A stretch of 63,996 nucleotides of DNA, counting the filler, from an uncultured Methanosarcinales archaeon (GTDB lineage Archaea > Nanobdellota > Nanobdellia > Woesearchaeales > CAYXTQ01): the NCBI GenBank assembly GCA_964608065.1. It is 6 parts of 6 records of this genome, joined end to end, with 100 filler letters (N's around TTAATTAATTAA, not from the genome) between each part and the next. Parts side by side here need not be neighbours in the genome. Positions count along the whole stretch, not along the records: positions 37,320 to 49,489 come from CAZSMA010000045.1; 5 more parts are not named here. The stretch is one strand, 5' to 3'. Below, in pieces: positions 2,257 through 61,753 of this stretch. Each line of letters starts with the position of its first letter. The stretch's first letter is position 1. The notes beneath the pieces were generated by a model that was given only the letters and a program-made list of their open reading frames with translations, made no database searches and was not told the origin of the DNA. A program made the translations under genes and the position numbers.

Positions 2257-3452
2257 TTAAAGTCCAGCTTCCTTTTTCAGCACTTCTGCCTTGTCAACTT
2301 TTTCCCATGTGAAGTCAGGGTCATCTCTTCCAAAATGTCCATAGGATGCTGTTTTTCTGTAAATAGGTCTTCTAAGTTTTAAGTGATCAATAATCTGCTT
2401 TGGCTTTAATGGAAAGTTTTTTCTTACAAGCTCAGAGATTTTTTCTTCTGGAATCTTGTTTGTTCCAAAACAATCCACATTTATTGAAGTTGGCTCTGCA
2501 ACTCCAATGCAATAAGACAATTGTACTTCGCATTTTTCTGCTAATTCTGCTGCTACAATATTCTTTGCTACATACCTTGCTGCATATGCACCAGAACGAT
2601 CTACTTTGCTTGGATCTTTTCCAGAAAATGCCCCACCACCATGTCTTCCAACACCACCATAGGTATCAACAATTATTTTTCTTCCTGTAACTCCTGTGTC
2701 TCCTTCAGGCCCTCCAATAACAAAAGCACCTGTTGCATTAATATGAATCTTTGTGTCTTCATCAATCCATTCTTTGCAAACTGGCTTGATTACATGTTCT
2801 AATATTTTTTCTCGCAGCTCTTCCTCTGATATATCTTTTTTATGCTGCTGAGCAATAACCACTGCTGTAACTTTTTTAGGTTTGTCATCTTCATACTGAA
2901 CACTAACTTGGCTTTTTCCATCAGGACCAAGATGAGGGATTATCCCTTCTTTTCTGACATATGCTAATCTTTGGGTAAGTTTATGAGCTAAGGTTATTGG
3001 TAATGGCATCAATTCCTTTGTTTCATTACATGCATAGCCATACATCATTCCTTGATCTCCTGCTCCTTGCTCTTTATCTTCTCCTTTTCCTTCTGTAACT
3101 CCTTGACTTATATCAGGAGATTGCTCATGGATTGCAACCCATACACCGCAATCTTCACAATCAATACCGAATCTTGGATTTGTATATCCAATATCCCTAA
3201 GAGTTTCTCTTACAACTTTCTGAACATCAACATAACCATTTGTTGTCACTTCTCCTGCTACATGAACGCTTCCTGTTGTAGTTAAACACTCAACAGCAAC
3301 CCTTGAATAAGGATCCTGCTTGAATAATTCATCCAATATAGCGTCGCTTATTTGGTCACACACTCAAGATACCCAATAGAAAAAAACTATTGAGTTTTAT
3401 CTGGATGACCTTCTGTAACGCTTTCAGATGTTACATATGTTATTTTTCCCAT
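2257..3452 (-). CDS. metK: S-adenosylmethionine synthetase, bacterial/eukaryotic type; two exons (3452-3397 and 3364-2257), 387 aa after joining
   Basis: Exon 1 [18 protein letters not shown](K) with upstream GGAGG; exon 2 VCDQISD...GAGDQG...[16 protein letters not shown]. Confidence 0.95.
3365..3396 (-). other. Predicted 32-nt bulge-helix-bulge (BHB) intron in metK mRNA
   Basis: Central helix AGAU/AUCU, 3-nt bulges AAA and UGA, 9-bp inner stem; canonical cut sites rejoin CCA GAT AA|A GTG TGT. Confidence 0.85.
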
Positions 3453-12382: not shown

Positions 12383-12482
12383 NNNNNNNNNNNNNNNNNN
12401 NNNNNNNNNNNNNNNNNNNNNNNNNNTTAATTAATTAANNNNNNNNNNNNNNNNNNNNNNNNNNNNNNNNNNNNNNNNNNNN
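12383..12482. other. Artificial contig linker
   Basis: N44-TTAATTAATTAA-N44, identical at five sites. Confidence 0.98.
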
Positions 12483-24808: not shown

Positions 24809-24908
24809 NNNNNNNNNNNNNNNNNNNNNNNNNNNNNNNNNNNNNNNNNNNNTTAATTAATTAANNNNNNNNNNNNNNNNNNNNNNNNNNNNNNNNNNNN
24901 NNNNNNNN

Positions 24909-37185: not shown

Positions 37186-37440
37186 AACCTCATATAAAAA
37201 ATTAAGTTATTTAAATGTTNNNNNNNNNNNNNNNNNNNNNNNNNNNNNNNNNNNNNNNNNNNNTTAATTAATTAANNNNNNNNNNNNNNNNNNNNNNNNN
37301 NNNNNNNNNNNNNNNNNNNATTAGAATAAATACACCTCTTTTCATTGTATAAATACATAGAACATTCTAGTTTATAAATTTTACTATTAATAAAATAAGT
37401 TTCCGAAATATTTAAATAAAATCATTATATAATCCTAACT

Positions 37441-43948: not shown

Positions 43949-44215
43949 ATGAAAAAAGAGGTTGAAGTATATTTAGAGATAGAAAAAAGCAGGATTAAAA
44001 GAGAAAAAGCTAAAATCGTTCTGAACAAATCTCTATTCCTATATGTTGCATTTCTTATTGTAGGTGTTTTTGGTTTTGTTAATAATTATATTGACCCAAC
44101 ACAGCTTAATATGCTTATAATTGTAGGTATCTTTGTATTATTTATAGGAACATTCCCATATGTTTTGACAACAACAAGAGAAGAGAAAAAAATAAATGAA
44201 ATGTTAAAACAATGA
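43949..44215 (+). CDS. Small two-TM hypothetical protein
   Basis: 88-aa ORF with two hydrophobic helices. Confidence 0.65.
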   Translation: MKKEVEVYLEIEKSRIKREKAKIVLNKSLFLYVAFLIVGVFGFVNNYIDPTQLNMLIIVGIFVLFIGTFPYVLTTTREEKKINEMLKQ

Positions 44216-44355
44216 AATTCTACCATTCTTTAGAATGGTGGAATGAATTGTGCTCAAAAACCACTAAAATGGTGGAATTTCAAGTGTCAAAAACCACTTG
44301 TTTTTTGTAGCACAAAAGGATTATACCACCAATCACAGATTGGTGGTTTTTGACA
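44207..44355 (+). repeat. Dispersed ~150-bp structured element (family A)
   Basis: AAACAATGAAATTC...GTGCTCAAAAACCA...GTGGAATTTCAAG..TCAAAAACCACTT...GGTGGTTTTTGACA. Confidence 0.85.
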
Positions 44356-44357
44356 AA

Positions 44358-44792
44358 ATGAGAAAAAAGGCTATAGCTCCATTAGTATCAACAATTGTTT
44401 TAATACTTTTTGCAGCAGGATTAGGTATTATAGTGATGAACTGGGGCTCTACAGCAACCTATGCAATAAAAACAATACAAGAATGTGAAAAATCAAGCTT
44501 AAACATTATAGAAATCAATGAAAAAAAAAGTGCCTGCTTTGAAGGTAATAAATTTTATTTCACTGCAGAAAACAATGGAGAAGCAACTATAGATTCCTTA
44601 AAGATCAGTTTTATTGGAGATGATGTTTACCAGGTAAATTTATATGAAAAATATTTTGTAGGAAACATAAAAAAAAATAATGTTGAATATGAAGATATTG
44701 GGCCAATTCTAAAAGTAAAAATAGCTCCTTTAGTTGGTGGAGAAATATGCGCAAAACAAAGCACAAGCATAGAAAACATACAAGCGTGCTGA
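44358..44792 (+). CDS. Archaeal type IV pilin-like protein
   Basis: MRKKA|IAPLVSTIVLI class III signal peptide. Confidence 0.8.
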   Translation: MRKKAIAPLVSTIVLILFAAGLGIIVMNWGSTATYAIKTIQECEKSSLNIIEINEKKSACFEGNKFYFTAENNGEATIDSLKISFIGDDVYQVNLYEKYFVGNIKKNNVEYEDIGPILKVKIAPLVGGEICAKQSTSIENIQAC

Positions 44793-45049
44793 AAGGAAAA
44801 AGCAAAATAAAGAAAATTGCTTTTGTTTTCACAGCTTTGCTTCCAATAGTATTAAGTGTTGCATGGATAGTATTGCTTGGTATGCCAGCTAAAAATGTTG
44901 GACTAGCTTTATCTCCTGCAAGAAGCACACCATTAGTTGTTGGTTTAGTTATATTCATAGTTGGCTATGTTGCTTTTTTATTTATGATGTTTTCTGAGGA
45001 TATAAAAGACTTCTATAAACATTTAATAAAGCATAAAACCCACCATTAA
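44786..45049 (+). CDS. Small two-TM hypothetical protein
   Basis: Two hydrophobic helices; GTG start overlapping the pilin end (start uncertain). Confidence 0.5.
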   Translation: MLKGKSKIKKIAFVFTALLPIVLSVAWIVLLGMPAKNVGLALSPARSTPLVVGLVIFIVGYVAFLFMMFSEDIKDFYKHLIKHKTHH

Positions 45050-45065
45050 TTCATAAAATTTATAT

Positions 45066-45398
45066 TTATTTTATTTTTTTAAAATGTTCATAAGCTTTGC
45101 TTAATTCTTGAATGAAATCTTCATGTAAGCTATTAGAATTCACGACTAACTCAGCAGGGCTTGTAACATACTCTGATGTTTTTAGTAGTAAATTACTTAA
45201 TACAATAAAATCATCTCCTTGGTAATTTGATAGCTCTGCTGCCAATTTGCTGTTTAGACATATGATAAATGTAATTAGCTTGAATTTATCAAACTTTACC
45301 AACATATCTTCAAGATCTGGTTCTTGCACTTGGGATTTAAATCTATGTAATATACCCATATAGTCATCAACAATTAATTCATGGACTTTAGGTATCAT
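45066..45398 (-). CDS. Hypothetical protein
   Basis: ORF with TATA-like box about 25 nt upstream; start uncertain. Confidence 0.4.
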   Translation of the reverse strand: MIPKVHELIVDDYMGILHRFKSQVQEPDLEDMLVKFDKFKLITFIICLNSKLAAELSNYQGDDFIVLSNLLLKTSEYVTSPAELVVNSNSLHEDFIQELSKAYEHFKKIK

Positions 45399-45505
45399 AG
45401 ATAATGAGATTGTTATACCCGTTATAAATATATATTTTTTTCTTTTCATTGAATTCACTAAAATTAACAAAATTTATAAACCAAATAAAAAACACTAGTT
45501 CTTAA

Positions 45506-45694
45506 GCCACGGTGGCACAACCTGGTACTGCGCAAGCCTGGAAAATTAATAAGGCAAGTAAAGACAGCTTGTTTCCTCACGGATATCCCAGTTCAAAACA
45601 ACTGGTTACGCTCGGTTGACACGCAAGGTGGAACGTAAAGTTCCACGTGCTCACTAATCGTTCGCAACCGTTGATGAAAGTCTGGGCCGTGGCG
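45506..45694 (+). tRNA. tRNA-Ser(GGA) with two introns (45544-45565 at 37/38; 45598-45680 at 59/60)
   Basis: Acceptor GCCACGG/CCGTGGC, anticodon stem CAAGC/GCTTG, long variable arm, T stem CCCAG/CTGGG. Confidence 0.9.
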
Positions 45695-45716
45695 TTTTAA
45701 CTTAGAGGCAATATAG

Positions 45717-46133
45717 ATGAAAATACCAATAGAAATCTGTCACATCAACAAAGACATTAGAAAAAAATCTTTAGAGGAAAAAGGCATTAAAAGAGTAGAA
45801 GAAATCGGATTAAAACATTATAGTAAAAAAAAGTTCAAAGTCTATAAACTATACCTTAAAGAAGGTCAGGAGAAATTAATCTCAGACATCAATAAACAAA
45901 AAATAAATTTTAAAAAAAATATAATAAAACCCATAAAAGAAGTTGGAAGATTTGATCTGTTCTGCTATAAAACAAAAACAAACTGGTTCTTTGCTGAAGT
46001 AAAAAAAATCCCCAACGACAAACCACAATACCATGAGAACCAGATGCACTGGATTAGAAAGTATCACTCTATGCTTAAGGATCATTTAAGATTTATTTTT
46101 ATTGTTCCTAAACATTGGCATGTTAAAGAATAA
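45717..46133 (+). CDS. PD-(D/E)XK nuclease, VRR-NUC-like
   Basis: GRFDLF...FAEVKK...ENQMHW. Confidence 0.6.
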   Translation: MKIPIEICHINKDIRKKSLEEKGIKRVEEIGLKHYSKKKFKVYKLYLKEGQEKLISDINKQKINFKKNIIKPIKEVGRFDLFCYKTKTNWFFAEVKKIPNDKPQYHENQMHWIRKYHSMLKDHLRFIFIVPKHWHVKE

Positions 46134-46143
46134 TAAAACAAAT

Positions 46144-46357
46144 GCCCTGCTGGTGTAGTCCGGCGATTGGTTACAAACCTATCGGACAATTAATCATTTT
46201 GCCCTCTCGCGACTGGTTACGCTCGGTCGACACGCAAAGTGCAACATAAAGTTGCACGTGCTCGCTTGTCGCTCGCAATCAGTTGAAGAAAGGCAAAGAC
46301 CTGGGTTCAAAGAAGCGAAGAGGTCAATGCTTCGCATTGAAAGTCCCAGGCGGGGCA
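46144..46357 (+). tRNA. tRNA-Glu(CTC) with three introns (46164-46189 D loop; 46210-46290 at 37/38; 46312-46343 at 59/60)
   Basis: Acceptor GCCCTGC/GCGGGGC, anticodon stem TTGCC/GGCAA, T stem CTGGG/CCCAG; BHB-type motif at each junction. Confidence 0.9.
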
Positions 46358-46561
46358 TTTTTTATAACAAAAATTAAATACTAATATTCTATAAATAGTG
46401 ATTATTGCCAACGTCGCATAACCTGGTCGTGCAGCTGTCTCGAAAACAGNNNNNNNNNNNNNNNNNNNNNNNNNNNNNNNNNNNNNNNNNNNNNNNNNNN
46501 NNNNNNNNNNNNNNNNNNNNNNNNNNNNNNNNNNNNNNNNNNNNNNNNNATAGTGATTATT

Positions 46562-46645
46562 GCCAACGTCGCATAACCTGGTCGTGCAGCTGTCTCGAAA
46601 ACAGCTGTCCTTCGGGACATGCAGGTTCAAATCCTGCCGTTGGCG
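46562..46645 (+). tRNA. tRNA-Ser(CGA), no intron
   Basis: GCCAACG/CGTTGGC, GCTGT-CTCGAAA-ACAGC, variable arm GTCC-TTCG-GGAC, TTCAAAT. Confidence 0.95.
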
Positions 46646-46708
46646 TTACTATTCTAAAATACTTACAATAGCAAATATTTAAATAATATTATTCATTATC
46701 TATATAAA

Positions 46709-47110
46709 ATGGCAGAATACAAAGGGATAGTAGATGTTGTAAATATTATCGGAAACGCATTTGGTACAGAAAAGGGTTTTTCAGATATAACAATTGAAGG
46801 TCAGTTAAAAAAACGAAAGCCTGAATTCTTAGAAGATATTTTTTTTTGTGTTGATACTATTCATTTAATCACTCAAGATGTTCATATTTTAGTAGAAAGA
46901 CAGTTTGCCAAAGGAGACCACATGATATACAAAGAGATAGAAGAAAATAGAGATCCTAAAGGGATTCTAACAAAGTTTAGCTGGAAACGCAAAGATCTAC
47001 AAATAGAAGTAGAGGCAGAGTATGAACCATTAACAAATAACAATGAACTAGTAGGTAAAGCTTATCATAAAATAAACAAATACCTAAGAGAAAAAAAAAT
47101 ATTTCTTTAA
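46709..47110 (+). CDS. Hypothetical protein
   Basis: 133-aa ORF with upstream TATA box. Confidence 0.55.
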   Translation: MAEYKGIVDVVNIIGNAFGTEKGFSDITIEGQLKKRKPEFLEDIFFCVDTIHLITQDVHILVERQFAKGDHMIYKEIEENRDPKGILTKFSWKRKDLQIEVEAEYEPLTNNNELVGKAYHKINKYLREKKIFL

Positions 47111-47814
47111 TGCCTATACTTCTTTTTAATCAACTTGGAAATATATAAAAAAGGAGTATCAAACACAGCTACAACCCATTTCATAACATACGAAACTAAG
47201 AATATCTGTATTATAATAGACCATTCAAACACCTGTCCCCATCCAAACAATCCTCCAAAACCAATAAAAGCAATCCATGTAAATATAACATTATCCAATA
47301 ACTGTGAACTCATTGTTGACAAATTATTCCTGATCCATAAATGTTTTCCTTTAAACAATTTCTTCCAGAAATCAAAAGCCCACACATCATGCAACTGACT
47401 AATGATATAAGCAGTTAATGAAGCTATTGTAATCCTAGGCAACATTGAAAATATTGTCTGCAAAGCCTCATTAGAAAAATCAGAGGAATGAGGAACAAAC
47501 TTTAAACAAATCTGCATTATAATTGTAGCAGCAATCAAAGTAAAAAAACCAATCCACACAGCTTTTCTTGCATCTTTCTTTCCATGGTTCTCATTTAGGA
47601 TATCTGTTGCTAAAAAAGTAGTTCCATATACAACATTACCTAATGCAACAACTAATCCAAATATACTTATTGTTTTCATAACCTGGATATTAGCTAAAAT
47701 AATAGCAACAGCCATCCACGCATACAACCCATTTTTACCAAAAAACCTGTAAACTAGAATTATAGCTATAAAATGCACTATCATAAACAATATCCATAAC
47801 AGTTCATTTGTCAT
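47107..47814 (-). CDS. VUT/YhhQ-family queuosine precursor transporter
   Basis: ANIQVMK, TDILNENHG, SQLHDV, LWIRNNLST, DTPF; divergent from tgt. Confidence 0.9.
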   Translation of the reverse strand: MTNELLWILFMIVHFIAIILVYRFFGKNGLYAWMAVAIILANIQVMKTISIFGLVVALGNVVYGTTFLATDILNENHGKKDARKAVWIGFFTLIAATIIMQICLKFVPHSSDFSNEALQTIFSMLPRITIASLTAYIISQLHDVWAFDFWKKLFKGKHLWIRNNLSTMSSQLLDNVIFTWIAFIGFGGLFGWGQVFEWSIIIQIFLVSYVMKWVVAVFDTPFLYISKLIKKKYRH

Positions 47815-47855
47815 TTTAGTAGGATTTAAATATTAAATATATAAATTTACTGATT

Positions 47856-49046
47856 ATGAAATTTAAAATTATTAAAAAGTATAAGAAAGCAAGATTAGGA
47901 GAAATAACATTACCTTCTGGAAAGATTAAAACTCCAGCTTTCATCCCAGTTGCAACTAAAGCTTCAGTCAAAGCTTTATCTAAACATGACTTAGAAGAAT
48001 TAAATCCTCAGATATTAATGTGTAACACTTATCATTTAATGCTAAGACCTGGTGCAGATTTAATCAAAAAATTCAAAGGACTGCATAATTTCATGAACTG
48101 GAACAAACCAATTATAACTGATTCTGCAGGATTCCAGGCTTTTAGTTTAGGTTATGGCAAAGAACACTTTACAGGAAAAATCGGAAGTTATTTTGTCGGC
48201 GATAAAAAAAGAAAGAAAGAAAAAAAAAAAATAGAAAAATTCGCTTTGATTAATGATGATTTTGTTTCATTCAAATCAATATACGATGAAAAAATAAAAA
48301 AAATTGCACCTGAAGATTCAATTAAGATACAGGAAAAATTAGGGGCAGATATCATCATAGCGTTTGACGAATGCACTTCTCCTTTTTCCTCTTATGAATA
48401 CACTAAAAACAGTCTAGAGAGAACACATAAATGGGCTGAAAGATGTGTTAAGGTACATAAGACAAAGCAGGCTTTATTCGGAGTAATCCAGGGTGGGGAA
48501 TATAAGAACCTAAGGCAGAAAAGCGCTAAATTTATTTCTAATTTAGGTTTTGATGGATACTGTATTGGCGGAAGTCTGGGAAAAACAAAAAAAAAAATGC
48601 ATCAAATCATTGACTGGTGTATTGATTTATTGCCTGAAGATAAACCAAGGCATTTACTTGGAATAGGAACTGTTGAGGATATATTTAATGCAGTTGAACG
48701 CGGAGTTGATATGTTTGATTGTGTTGCGCCTACAAGATTAGCAAGAGCAGGTTATATTTATATCTCTTATAATTCTGGAGGTAATGTTAAGAATAAATTT
48801 AGATACAGGCTTTTAGGAGCTAAATTTGAGAAAGATAAAAAACCATTGGATCCTAACTGTGAATGTAAAGTTTGTAAGACTTATTCAAGGGCATATATAA
48901 GGCATTTATTCAAATCAAAGGAATATCTTGCTTATACTTTAGCAACATATCATAATCTTTATTTTATTATTAATATGATGGAAGATATAAGAAAAGCTAT
49001 AAAGAAAGGAGAGTTTTCTAAGTTGAGGAGAAAGTGGCTGAAATAA
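47856..49046 (+). CDS. tgt: Bacterial-type tRNA-guanine(34) transglycosylase
   Basis: TPAFIPVAT, NTYHL..RPG, TDSAGFQ, FDEC, IQGG, DMFDCVAPTR, CECKVC, HN. Confidence 0.93.
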   Translation: MKFKIIKKYKKARLGEITLPSGKIKTPAFIPVATKASVKALSKHDLEELNPQILMCNTYHLMLRPGADLIKKFKGLHNFMNWNKPIITDSAGFQAFSLGYGKEHFTGKIGSYFVGDKKRKKEKKKIEKFALINDDFVSFKSIYDEKIKKIAPEDSIKIQEKLGADIIIAFDECTSPFSSYEYTKNSLERTHKWAERCVKVHKTKQALFGVIQGGEYKNLRQKSAKFISNLGFDGYCIGGSLGKTKKKMHQIIDWCIDLLPEDKPRHLLGIGTVEDIFNAVERGVDMFDCVAPTRLARAGYIYISYNSGGNVKNKFRYRLLGAKFEKDKKPLDPNCECKVCKTYSRAYIRHLFKSKEYLAYTLATYHNLYFIINMMEDIRKAIKKGEFSKLRRKWLK

Positions 49047-49472: not shown

Positions 49473-49589
49473 AAAAAAAATAATATATTNNNNNNNNNNN
49501 NNNNNNNNNNNNNNNNNNNNNNNNNNNNNNNNNTTAATTAATTAANNNNNNNNNNNNNNNNNNNNNNNNNNNNNNNNNNNNNNNNNNNN

Positions 49590-61648: not shown

Positions 61649-61753
61649 TCATANNNNNNNNNNNNNNNNNNNNNNNNNNNNNNNNNNNNNNNNNNNNTTA
61701 ATTAATTAANNNNNNNNNNNNNNNNNNNNNNNNNNNNNNNNNNNNNNNNNNNN

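Follow-up and report, generated by a model that had tools for sequence, protein, structure and literature searches.

Two neighbouring tRNA genes on the + strand of the window, by which we mean the whole 63,996-nucleotide stretch of DNA analysed here, raise the question of how two related introns, of 83 and 81 nt, came to interrupt different tRNAs at different positions. We favour the reading that both belong to a dispersed family of structured repeats, ~75 nt long, that reside within tRNA transcription units in DPANN archaea of the Woesearchaeota type (probability about 0.6). The element is probably mobile and tolerated as a bulge-helix-bulge (BHB) intron.

The two introns and their host genes

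The tRNA-Ser(GGA) gene (45506..45694, +) carries two introns, and ARAGORN calls it as tRNA-Ser(gga) once the one in its T-loop is removed in silico. That intron, of 83 nt, lies at 59/60 (45598..45680, +). The tRNA-Glu(CUC) gene (46144..46357, +) carries three and is called as tRNA-Glu(ctc) when all are removed in silico; the one of 81 nt lies at the canonical position 37/38 (46210..46290, +). Both were delimited with a covariance model of the family together with the BHB motif. The initial annotation regarded them as homologous, and the comparison bears this out: they are 90.4% identical over 52 nt in blastn within their own genome (E 5.6e-12), show 86% mean column identity over an alignment of 103 columns with flanks, and match the family model with 91.6 bits (45600-45674, Ser) and 98.8 bits (46211-46285, Glu). 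The compensatory hairpin change described there is also present in the alignment, with arms reading GTGGAAC/GTTCCAC in one intron and GTGCAAC/GTTGCAC in the other. The two introns have one common core and ends specific to each site that build the BHB motif, with central helix 4/4 and outer helix 4/4 in Ser, and central 3/4, outer 4/4 and an inner helix of 8 bp in Glu. The proposal of different positions (T-loop 59/60 and 37/38) with site-adapted flanks thus holds. An Rfam search of 44000-48000 (E up to 1) returned tRNA matches only.

The remaining introns of these genes differ in their relation to the family. The 22-nt intron at 37/38 of tRNA-Ser(GGA) (45544..45565, +; ARAGORN i(39,22)) lies outside it and has a weak BHB (central helix 2/4, outer 4/4); a register shift of one base yields an identical mature tRNA. 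In tRNA-Glu(CUC), the D-loop intron of ~24 nt (46165..46188, +) was placed by the best BHB register that keeps a tRNA-Glu of normal length, and its boundaries are uncertain by a few bases. Its stem holds the 10-mer GATTGGTTAC, common to the Tyr and Val T-loop family copies, and it may be an internally deleted relic of the family. The 32-nt intron at 59/60 (46312..46343, +), from our scan for T-loop introns, has a BHB with central helix 4/4 and outer 4/4 and is no clear family member; a DNA contig of public run X3, with short flanks, omits exactly these 32 bases, which hints weakly at insertion polymorphism. Between the two genes lies a 138-aa ORF taken from the ORF list (45717..46133, +), which adjoins tRNA-Ser also in the congeneric genome G001 (76% nucleotide identity). 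It has no Pfam match at E up to 5, and it may contain a nuclease-like motif. We treat this ORF as context for the introns and draw no link between them.

Could one of the two copies be an assembly artefact of a repeat? The window joins short metagenome contigs, and elsewhere assemblies do break at repeats of this family, several copies of which lie at the ends of contigs. However, contigs from public runs of different studies cross each intron with both flanks and without a single mismatch (X2 record 9 covers 45565-45851, X1 record 5 covers 45921-46360), and misassembly is accordingly unlikely; one of these runs may, however, come from the very sample that gave the window's assembly. The copies also differ from each other in sequence and in their site-specific ends, and we consider an artefact extremely unlikely.

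A three-hairpin element in nine tRNA genes

A search of the same 1.4-Mb genome (G000) found ten full copies of the family (81.6-98.8 bits), together with one divergent and one partial copy; there are more in related genomes. The ten full copies occupy nine tRNA genes at three positions, the D-loop, 37/38 and 59/60: Ser(GGA), Glu(CUC), Pro(UGG), Gly(UCC), a class-II Ser, Tyr(GUA), Asn(GUU), Ser(UGA) and Val(CAC), which has two of them. Their cores are 71-93% identical, and core sub-types cut across intron positions. In one case in G000, on contig C23, the element is bracketed by direct repeats of a tRNA segment. The flanks of the divergent copy, on contig C16, are not repeated elsewhere. As a separate observation, the downstream flank of that copy is a promoter-like repeat of its own.

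All ten copies have BHB-compatible junctions (central helix at least 3/4, outer at least 2/4, inner at least 3 bp), judged by a strict or relaxed form of the motif, in which a helix of 4 bp at the exon-intron boundary is flanked by two bulges of 3 nt; the boundaries of D-loop copies are uncertain by ~2 nt. A scan for the BHB alone yields many false candidates. In silico removal of the T-loop introns gave an ARAGORN tRNA call in six of seven hosts, and the seventh, Val, has two further introns. Some host isotype calls were corrected by eye, and a hand reading of the class-II tRNA-Ser, on contig C2, gave no resolved anticodon arm. In the hosts that ARAGORN calls, removal of the family introns restores the tRNA cloverleaf in silico, as expected of BHB tRNA introns. 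The genome has one splicing endonuclease gene, a 190-aa frame on C16 (PF01974, E 6.3e-27). A few site-specific bases at each end of the element would pair with the neighbouring D-, anticodon- or T-loop exon and form the BHB motif; the single endonuclease would then excise the element and the tRNA halves would be religated, leaving a functional host tRNA.

Disrupted tRNA genes and loop-bearing alpha4-type endonucleases have been described in DPANN archaea, in excerpts from Kaneta et al. 2018 (PMC5829648). Similar to the Woesearchaeota- and Pacearchaeota-type genomes in those excerpts, heavy tRNA gene disruption here goes with a tRNA set that is incomplete by standard tools: in a genome of 96.8% completeness, ARAGORN reports ~18 tRNAs, and 17 pass the cut-off of the Rfam model. 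Unlike here, the same excerpts mention neither a family of introns with shared sequence nor a dispersed element, and a full-text literature search found no published description of the element.

The element is ~75 nt long and has three hairpins. Hairpin 1 combines a variable, covarying stem with the invariant loop GUUACGCU and is followed by an invariant linker, GA(C/U)ACGCAA; the stem of hairpin 2 covaries freely, and a small third hairpin lies in a 3' half rich in CGCUCGCAA. The 3' tail is able to pair with the 5' end, closing a rod. In an alignment of 27 intron copies from 12 genomes, the three-hairpin model is 95.2% paired, and its pairs 1-18 (AU 15, GC 12) and 68-77 (GC 18, AU 9) are unbroken in all 27 copies. 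Under the rod model 91.3% of cells pair, compared to 27-37% with slid partners. Among 80 named public loci, the flanks of hairpin 1, which were left unconstrained, pair 5/5 in 71 and 4/5 in 7. Covariation thus supports the hairpins, in keeping with the earlier description of the introns as structured. The element is quasi-palindromic, and the family model scores its opposite strand at 20-30 bits.

Occupancy, distribution and genomic contexts

The congener G001 differs from G000 at five sites. Its syntenic tRNA-Ser(GGA) has an intact T-loop without a family copy, and neither the D-loop nor the T-loop of its syntenic Val(CAC) is interrupted, both G000 copies being absent there. Conversely, a family copy occupies the T-loop of Glu(UUC) in G001 and not in G000, and Asn(GUU) in G001 has a 39-nt, internally deleted version. 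The Gly D-loop site is occupied in both by different sub-types, with cores that are 80% identical, whereas the G001 Gly D-loop core is 93% identical to the G000 Val D-loop core (clade support 98/91). As read from the two genomes, these differences show that, over the time that separates species of one genus, copies appear and disappear, undergo internal deletion and are exchanged between sites. In a tree of the cores (75 columns), 17 of 24 inner branches are left open, so the direction of gain and loss and the donor sites cannot be read from it.

The initial annotation spoke of an intron actively spreading in a DPANN lineage. Occupancy does vary between congeners (at Ser(GGA), Val(CAC), Glu(UUC) and Asn(GUU)) and the named carrier records are titled DPANN, which agrees with that view, but only as far as lineage and variability go. 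Transposed BHB tRNA introns are known from Thermoproteales (Fujishima et al. 2010, as summarised in part of a review, PMC4090602). As there, G000 has similar introns in nine different tRNAs at three positions, and occupancy differs between close relatives. Unlike the Thermoproteales case, ours concerns a DPANN-type lineage with a single ~190-aa endonuclease gene and an intron built on one sequence-defined three-hairpin module. We also find this module outside introns, where stretches of tRNA sequence are duplicated on both sides of it, and under record titles that name another DPANN phylum.

The family model has matches in 16 of 151 genomes of the order. Of 401 genomes of the order, 83 contain a 24-nt motif from the conserved heart of the element (up to one mismatch), with 1-19 copies per genome; the reversed motif, used as a control, gave one match. 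Public records titled Woesearchaeota and Nanohaloarchaea also hold the motif, with at least 115 stretches in named genomes. In IMG/VR we found two matches in viral contigs, both without hairpin-1 complementarity and inside apparent coding sequence, and by our own estimate chance would give about as many for 18 fixed bases; we do not count them as the element.

By context, the 80 named loci comprise 22 T-loop introns, 21 copies flanked by direct repeats, 12 inside a larger RNA and 25 others. The direct repeats measure 13-78 nt, and the second repeat lies 34-106 nt away from the motif in a scan that reached ~160 nt and would miss larger inserted elements. In all eight loci with an ARAGORN-resolved tRNA, one limit of the repeat falls within 4 nt of a tRNA end and the other in the D- or T-loop. 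Copies other than introns lie directly after tRNA 3' ends as trailers, in leaders with duplicated tRNA fragments, and beside protein genes, in either orientation. Wherever we saw the module, its 5' end lies directly at a site of tRNA processing, either a 5' splice site or the first nucleotide behind the discriminator. The module also opens a conserved multi-hairpin RNA of ~250 nt that adjoins ordinary genes. This larger RNA is neither SRP RNA nor RNase P RNA, both of which map elsewhere in G000, G073, G076 and G111, and Rfam gave no match for it in four loci (L039-L041, L045) beyond one ordinary tRNA elsewhere in L041.

Origin of the introns

From copies that follow tRNA 3' ends or lie between duplicated tRNA segments we infer insertion or recombination at the DNA level that is able to seed introns. 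It is tempting to go further and propose, tentatively, that new tRNA introns of archaea start from the module. A short non-coding element would insert at tRNA loops or ends; insertion would duplicate the segment from the loop to the gene end, giving a tRNA fragment, the module and a full gene in a row; and loss of one repeat would leave a spliceable D- or T-loop intron. Repeat-flanked copies, trailers, full introns at three positions and deleted mini-introns are all visible with one element. A comparable arrangement is the 1.8-kb insert, encoding a recombinase, at tRNA-Thr(GGU) of Caldiarchaeum subterraneum, which excerpts from Sugahara et al. 2012 (PMC3293823) put forward as a mobile-element route to intron gain. 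There too, according to those excerpts, a tRNA 5' fragment, an insert and a full tRNA gene stand in a row; unlike that insert, the sequence between our repeats is at most ~106 nt, non-coding, and the same module as in the introns. The 21 of 80 named loci in which direct repeats of a tRNA segment bracket the insert likewise recall tRNA-targeting integrative elements, but no integrase or cargo gene lies within the 34-106 nt spacings covered by our scan.

Selection for function offers a different account. The module could be a small RNA or RNA domain, such as a protein-binding module, that rides on tRNA transcripts with copy number as dosage, and that is released by the splicing endonuclease from introns, by RNase Z after tRNA 3' ends and by RNase P before 5' ends. 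A functional domain would also fit the loop of hairpin 1 and its linker, near-invariant in records titled as different phyla (Woesearchaeota and Nanohaloarchaea) while the stems covary, the constant placement of the 5' end at a processing site and the position of the module at the start of the ~250-nt RNA. Haloarchaea provide a precedent for structured RNA in a tRNA intron, a box C/D sRNA that the tRNA-Trp intron encodes and that splicing sets free. Unlike it, the element is multi-copy, occupies several positions with variable occupancy, and has no conserved C or D box (C, RUGAUGA; D, CUGA) in the invariant columns of the 27-copy alignment. The Ser copy alone has a TGATGA, at its 3' end. A functional RNA is also hard to square with a motif found in only 83 of 401 genomes at copy numbers of 1-19, with gain or loss between congeners, with tolerated internally deleted relics and with the lack of an Rfam family. 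Moreover, the conserved loops have no antisense target in G000, where the complements of four conserved stretches matched only within the copies themselves or at scattered sites with one mismatch. We therefore find this account doubtful.

Could the introns instead be ancient and vertically inherited, alike within a genome through gene conversion and different between species through precise loss, with no transposition at all? Part of the site occupancy may indeed be old, given that several GTDB families share sites: Glu(CUC) 37/38 is occupied in four genomes (G000, G075, G098, G119), the Gly(UCC) D-loop in three (G000, G001, G100), the Val(CAC) D-loop in two and the Gln(CUG) T-loop in two. Old occupancy followed by losses and repeated gain would both produce such sharing. 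The crossing of positions by core sub-types within G000 is also compatible with this account. Yet the element also stands outside tRNA exons, as trailers, as leaders with duplicated fragments and beside protein genes in either orientation; this, the spread in copy number among genomes and the five site differences between congeners make purely vertical descent unlikely in our view.

Within the mobile reading, a special case would name the enzyme: a domesticated IS200-type Y1 transposase would move the element, a hairpin doublet of the REPIN kind, in the form of single-stranded DNA. Bacterial REP/REPIN sequences with RAYT transposases are short, multi-copy, hairpin-forming non-coding repeats of lineage-variable copy number that lie between genes and flank a single-copy Y1 gene. 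Our element resembles them as a short, multi-copy, hairpin-forming non-coding repeat of variable copy number, but its copies sit within tRNA genes, not between genes. Its quasi-palindromic sequence and its conserved loop on a variable stem are as in hairpins that are read single-stranded. G000 has one Y1_Tnp gene ~240 nt from the copy-bearing tRNA-Gly, but that gene has no flanking family copies and a different hairpin upstream. Y1_Tnp occurs in 9 of 12 genomes chosen for high copy number, and in 34 of 83 motif-positive compared to 93 of 318 motif-negative genomes (odds ratio 1.7, p 0.047, uncorrected for relatedness), a weak association that leaves 49 of the 83 without a match. IS200-type insertion is not known to make a target duplication, which is at odds with the repeat-flanked copies, and we consider this mechanism very unlikely. 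Other candidate enzymes fared no better: RVT_1 shows no positive association (15 of 83 motif-positive, 82 of 318 motif-negative genomes), with one such gene in G000, adjoining an HTH gene, and a TnpB-type Zn-ribbon domain has no match in G000.

The abstract of a 2026 preprint on Asgard tRNA introns leaves the route of their arrival open. The dispersed element favoured here offers a handle on how archaeal tRNA introns are acquired and lost: it is recognisable by sequence and traceable through many genomes in four states (intron, trailer, repeat-flanked insert and decayed mini-intron), and presence/absence differences within one genus allow gain and loss to be counted on a species tree. Family copies are also defined substrates for endonuclease assays. 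If the module does seed introns, BHB-intron gain would for the first time have a route that can be traced.

The suggestion in the initial annotation that the intron of metK may have been gained from this element is not supported: the family model finds no copy on the metK contig. By sequence, the metK intron is real but unrelated to the family, a clean BHB intron of 32 nt. Archaeal-type MetK (PF01941) is absent, and the metK that carries this intron is of the bacterial type.

The two introns and their neighbourhood

The T-loop intron of tRNA-Ser(GGA) (window 45598-45680) and the anticodon-loop intron of tRNA-Glu(CUC) (46210-46290) are homologous, with 86% column identity over 103 columns including flanks and, in a blastn search within the genome, 90.4% identity over 52 nt (E 5.6e-12). 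The boundaries assigned to them in the initial annotation proved exact, and the compensated change it described, GTGGAAC/GTTCCAC versus GTGCAAC/GTTGCAC, is present in our alignment of the two. Once 45598-45680 is removed, ARAGORN calls tRNA-Ser(gga) and places a further intron, of 22 nt, at 37/38; tRNA-Glu(ctc) is obtained after removal of a D-loop insert, 46210-46290 and 46312-46343. Both introns show the usual bulge-helix-bulge (BHB) geometry: the Ser intron separates positions 59 and 60 (central helix 4/4, outer 4/4), and the Glu intron sits at 37/38 (central 3/4, outer 4/4, inner helix 8 bp).

The source genome (G000) is a metagenome-assembled genome of 1.40 Mb in 131 contigs, with 31% G+C and 96.8% completeness. 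Public groundwater metagenome runs contain contigs that cover each intron together with both its flanks and show no mismatch, which speaks against misassembly of either copy, though one of these runs may be the source sample. One DNA contig from public run X3 joins 46311 to 46344 and lacks precisely the 32-nt intron in the tRNA-Glu T-loop; though its flanks are only 25-29 bases, it gives a hint that a related population has an allele without this intron. In the same tRNA, the short D-loop intron has a 10-mer and a stem in common with copies of the intron family and, judged from its sequence, may be another relic of it.

The window is made of contigs C42-C46 and C124, with N runs around a 12-base spacer at 12383-12482, 24809-24908, 37220-37319, 49490-49589 and 61654-61753, and gene adjacency across these five joins is not real. 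Both introns are on C45 (C45 coordinate = window coordinate - 37319), which carries tRNA-Ser(GGA), a 138-aa ORF, tRNA-Glu(CUC), a tRNA-Ser(CGA) without introns and, more distantly, a gene for an archaeosine-type tRNA-guanine transglycosylase. The ORF (45717-46133), situated between two intron-rich tRNA genes, matched no Pfam family; it may have a nuclease-like motif, and it also adjoins tRNA-Ser(GGA) in G001, the other genome of the genus, at 76% DNA identity. The 43 bases before a 100-N gap (46407-46449) repeat the first tRNA-Ser(CGA) bases beyond it (46562-46604), and the gap probably represents two contig ends that overlap unmerged rather than lost sequence.

A structured intron family

Searching for the sequence across the genome by motif scan and blastn yielded ten complete copies plus a partial one. 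The covariance model derived from those ten recovers them at 81.6-98.8 bits, retrieves the partial copy on C23 and brings in a further, divergent copy in an intergenic stretch of C16 (52.8 bits). The T-loop (59/60) hosts are Ser(GGA), Pro(UGG), a class-II Ser, Tyr(GUA), Asn(GUU), Ser(UGA) and Val(CAC); Gly(UCC) and Val(CAC) have the element in the D-loop and Glu(CUC) at 37/38. As first proposed, the splice motif is rebuilt by site-specific flanks: a few bases at each intron end vary with the site and fit the local exon (UGAA pairs with a UUCA T-loop, CGAA with UUCG), and the junctions of all ten copies are BHB-compatible. Splicing endonuclease is encoded once in the genome, by a 190-aa frame at L029:1216-1785, whose neighbour on the opposite strand is an RNase Z-like metallo-beta-lactamase gene (L029:517-1146).

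Because standard tools detect so few tRNAs here (about 18 with ARAGORN, 17 above the Rfam cut-off), most tRNA genes of this genome must carry unusual introns that break them up. Scanning for T-loop introns gave 45 raw matches, 12 of them judged credible by eye; together with Pro this makes 13 introns at 59/60, seven of them belonging to the family and one being an internally deleted 31-nt relic. Besides its T-loop family intron, tRNA-Pro(UGG) has a seeming 28-nt AT-rich intron between acceptor-stem positions 3 and 4 (L001:194-221), and the short D-loop intron of tRNA-Gln(CUG) (L006:159-180) contains ATGATGA, which is box C-like.

Two structure models were scored on 27 intron copies from 12 genomes. 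The rod model pairs 91.3% of cells, compared to 27-37% with partners slid, and both sides change in 13 pairs; the three-hairpin model pairs 95.2%, and its pairs 1-18 (AU 15, GC 12) and 68-77 (GC 18, AU 9) stay intact in every copy. The 5' strand of hairpin 1 therefore has two potential partners, the nearby one and the 3' tail, and in the model it is the rod form that supplies the BHB inner helix. We also listed 80 named public loci using a pattern that leaves the hairpin 1 stem unconstrained; the stem pairs 5/5 in 71 of the 80 and 4/5 in 7. Two listed loci with bacterial titles, in which at most 2 stem positions pair, are chance matches. Hardly any variation is seen in the loop GUUACGCU or in the linker GA(C/U)ACGCAA. 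No family in Rfam matched the element, and full-text literature searches found no description of it.

Distribution and copies outside introns

The covariance model matches 16 of 151 genomes of the order, including the source genome and one unpublished genome. A 24-nt motif with at most one mismatch occurs in 83 of 401 genomes, three of them unpublished, and in 62 of 258 genera, at 1-19 copies each (11 in the source genome; 1 match for the reversed-motif control), and a one-genome-per-species scan found at least 115 stretches. Record titles among the 80 listed matches are mostly Woesearchaeota or Nanoarchaeota; several are Nanohaloarchaea, among them that of a complete genome, and the 'Methanosarcinales' label on some is doubtful.

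By context, the 80 listed loci comprise 22 T-loop introns, 21 cases with direct repeats of 13-78 nt around the module, 12 in which the module opens a ~250-nt multi-hairpin RNA, and 25 others, 37/38 introns among them. What all contexts have in common is the 5' half alone (hairpin 1, linker, hairpin 2); the rod-closing 3' half accompanies the intron form. In the eight repeat-flanked loci with an ARAGORN-resolved tRNA, one edge of the repeat lies within 4 nt of a tRNA end and the other in the D-loop (positions 15-21) or T-loop (about 56-58), the same loops that bear the introns. Repeat-flanked loci read full tRNA, module, 3' fragment or 5' fragment, module, full tRNA, likewise with the module on the opposite strand. 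The repeat-flanked case in the source genome (L006:240-335; C23:16540-16634) is a partial module in reverse orientation between an intact tRNA-Gln(CUG) and a duplicated tRNA-Gln 3' fragment, whose acceptor end matches Gln genes holding a family intron in other genomes. A sister variant of the module lies 2-4 nt 3' of tRNA ends in the genome G010 and is itself a T-loop intron in the genome G141.

The ~250-nt conserved RNA begins with the hairpin-1/linker/hairpin-2 module (L039:1440-1700; also L040, L041, L045, L073, L076, L085, L090, L091 and L099). It had no Rfam match and is neither SRP RNA nor RNase P RNA. In four loci it adjoins ordinary genes, upstream of GTPase, ribosomal protein and kinase-like genes, and it is multi-copy in one named Woesearchaeota record, frequently at contig ends.

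Turnover, mechanism and the metK insert

G001 (91% complete) was the only other genome of the genus compared, and occupancy is not invariant between the two. Its syntenic tRNA-Ser(GGA) has an intact T-loop, and its tRNA-Val(CAC), also syntenic, has both D-loop and T-loop intact. Glu(UUC) carries a T-loop copy in G001 and none in the source genome, and Asn(GUU) of G001 has an internally deleted 39-nt version. The Gly(UCC) D-loop is occupied in both genomes, with cores merely 80% identical; the G001 core is 93% identical to the Val D-loop core of the source genome (clade support 98/91). Within the source genome, the Glu 37/38 core is nearest to the class-II Ser T-loop and Gly D-loop cores, at 91% identity, and is 88% and 80% identical to the Glu 37/38 cores of G075 and G098, respectively. 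Position labels on the core tree require 7 changes, versus 7.7 with shuffled labels, and the tree cannot order events because 17 of its 24 inner branches are unresolved. Several GTDB families are occupied at some of the same tRNA/position pairs; old occupancy with losses and repeated gain are both possible.

Invariance of the loops across lineages keeps alive the reading that the element is a functional RNA. For a housekeeping RNA, however, the distribution is patchy, copy number is variable and copies are decayed, which favours a selfish or accessory element. The splicing endonuclease would remove the element from pre-tRNA and release a product that is probably circular, as archaeal introns are known to be. 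New copies would arise through insertion or recombination at the DNA level. A tRNA-fragment/insert arrangement was proposed by Sugahara et al. (PMC3293823) as a route to intron gain, and the repeat-flanked module is a miniature likeness of it. Among candidate mobilising enzymes, reverse transcriptase is not enriched (15/83 motif-positive versus 82/318 motif-negative genomes) and Y1 transposase is weakly enriched (34/83 versus 93/318). The only IS200-type Y1 transposase gene of the source genome (L184:1501-1860), about 240 nt from the tRNA-Gly with a D-loop copy, has no family copies flanking it, and IMG/VR viral contigs gave only two matches, both chance-like.

The observation behind the initial annotation is thus confirmed and its interpretation partly supported: a structured family at several tRNA positions, with turnover between congeners, holds up, and active spread is one possible reading of it. 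The suggestion that metK gained its intron from this family is not supported. The bacterial-type metK (minus strand) has a 32-nt insert at 3365-3396, after the first 19 codons, whose removal restores the reading frame; it scores highest of the BHB candidates at this place (central 4/4, outer 3/4, inner 9 bp), forms a clean motif and is read as a protein-gene BHB intron. A search with the family model showed that it has nothing in common with the family. Elsewhere in the genome, a ~35-nt motif, a GC-rich box followed by a TATA-like box, is repeated in five copies upstream of genes (C16:15566-15582; others on C1, C5, C6 and C116) and is probably a common promoter or regulator site.
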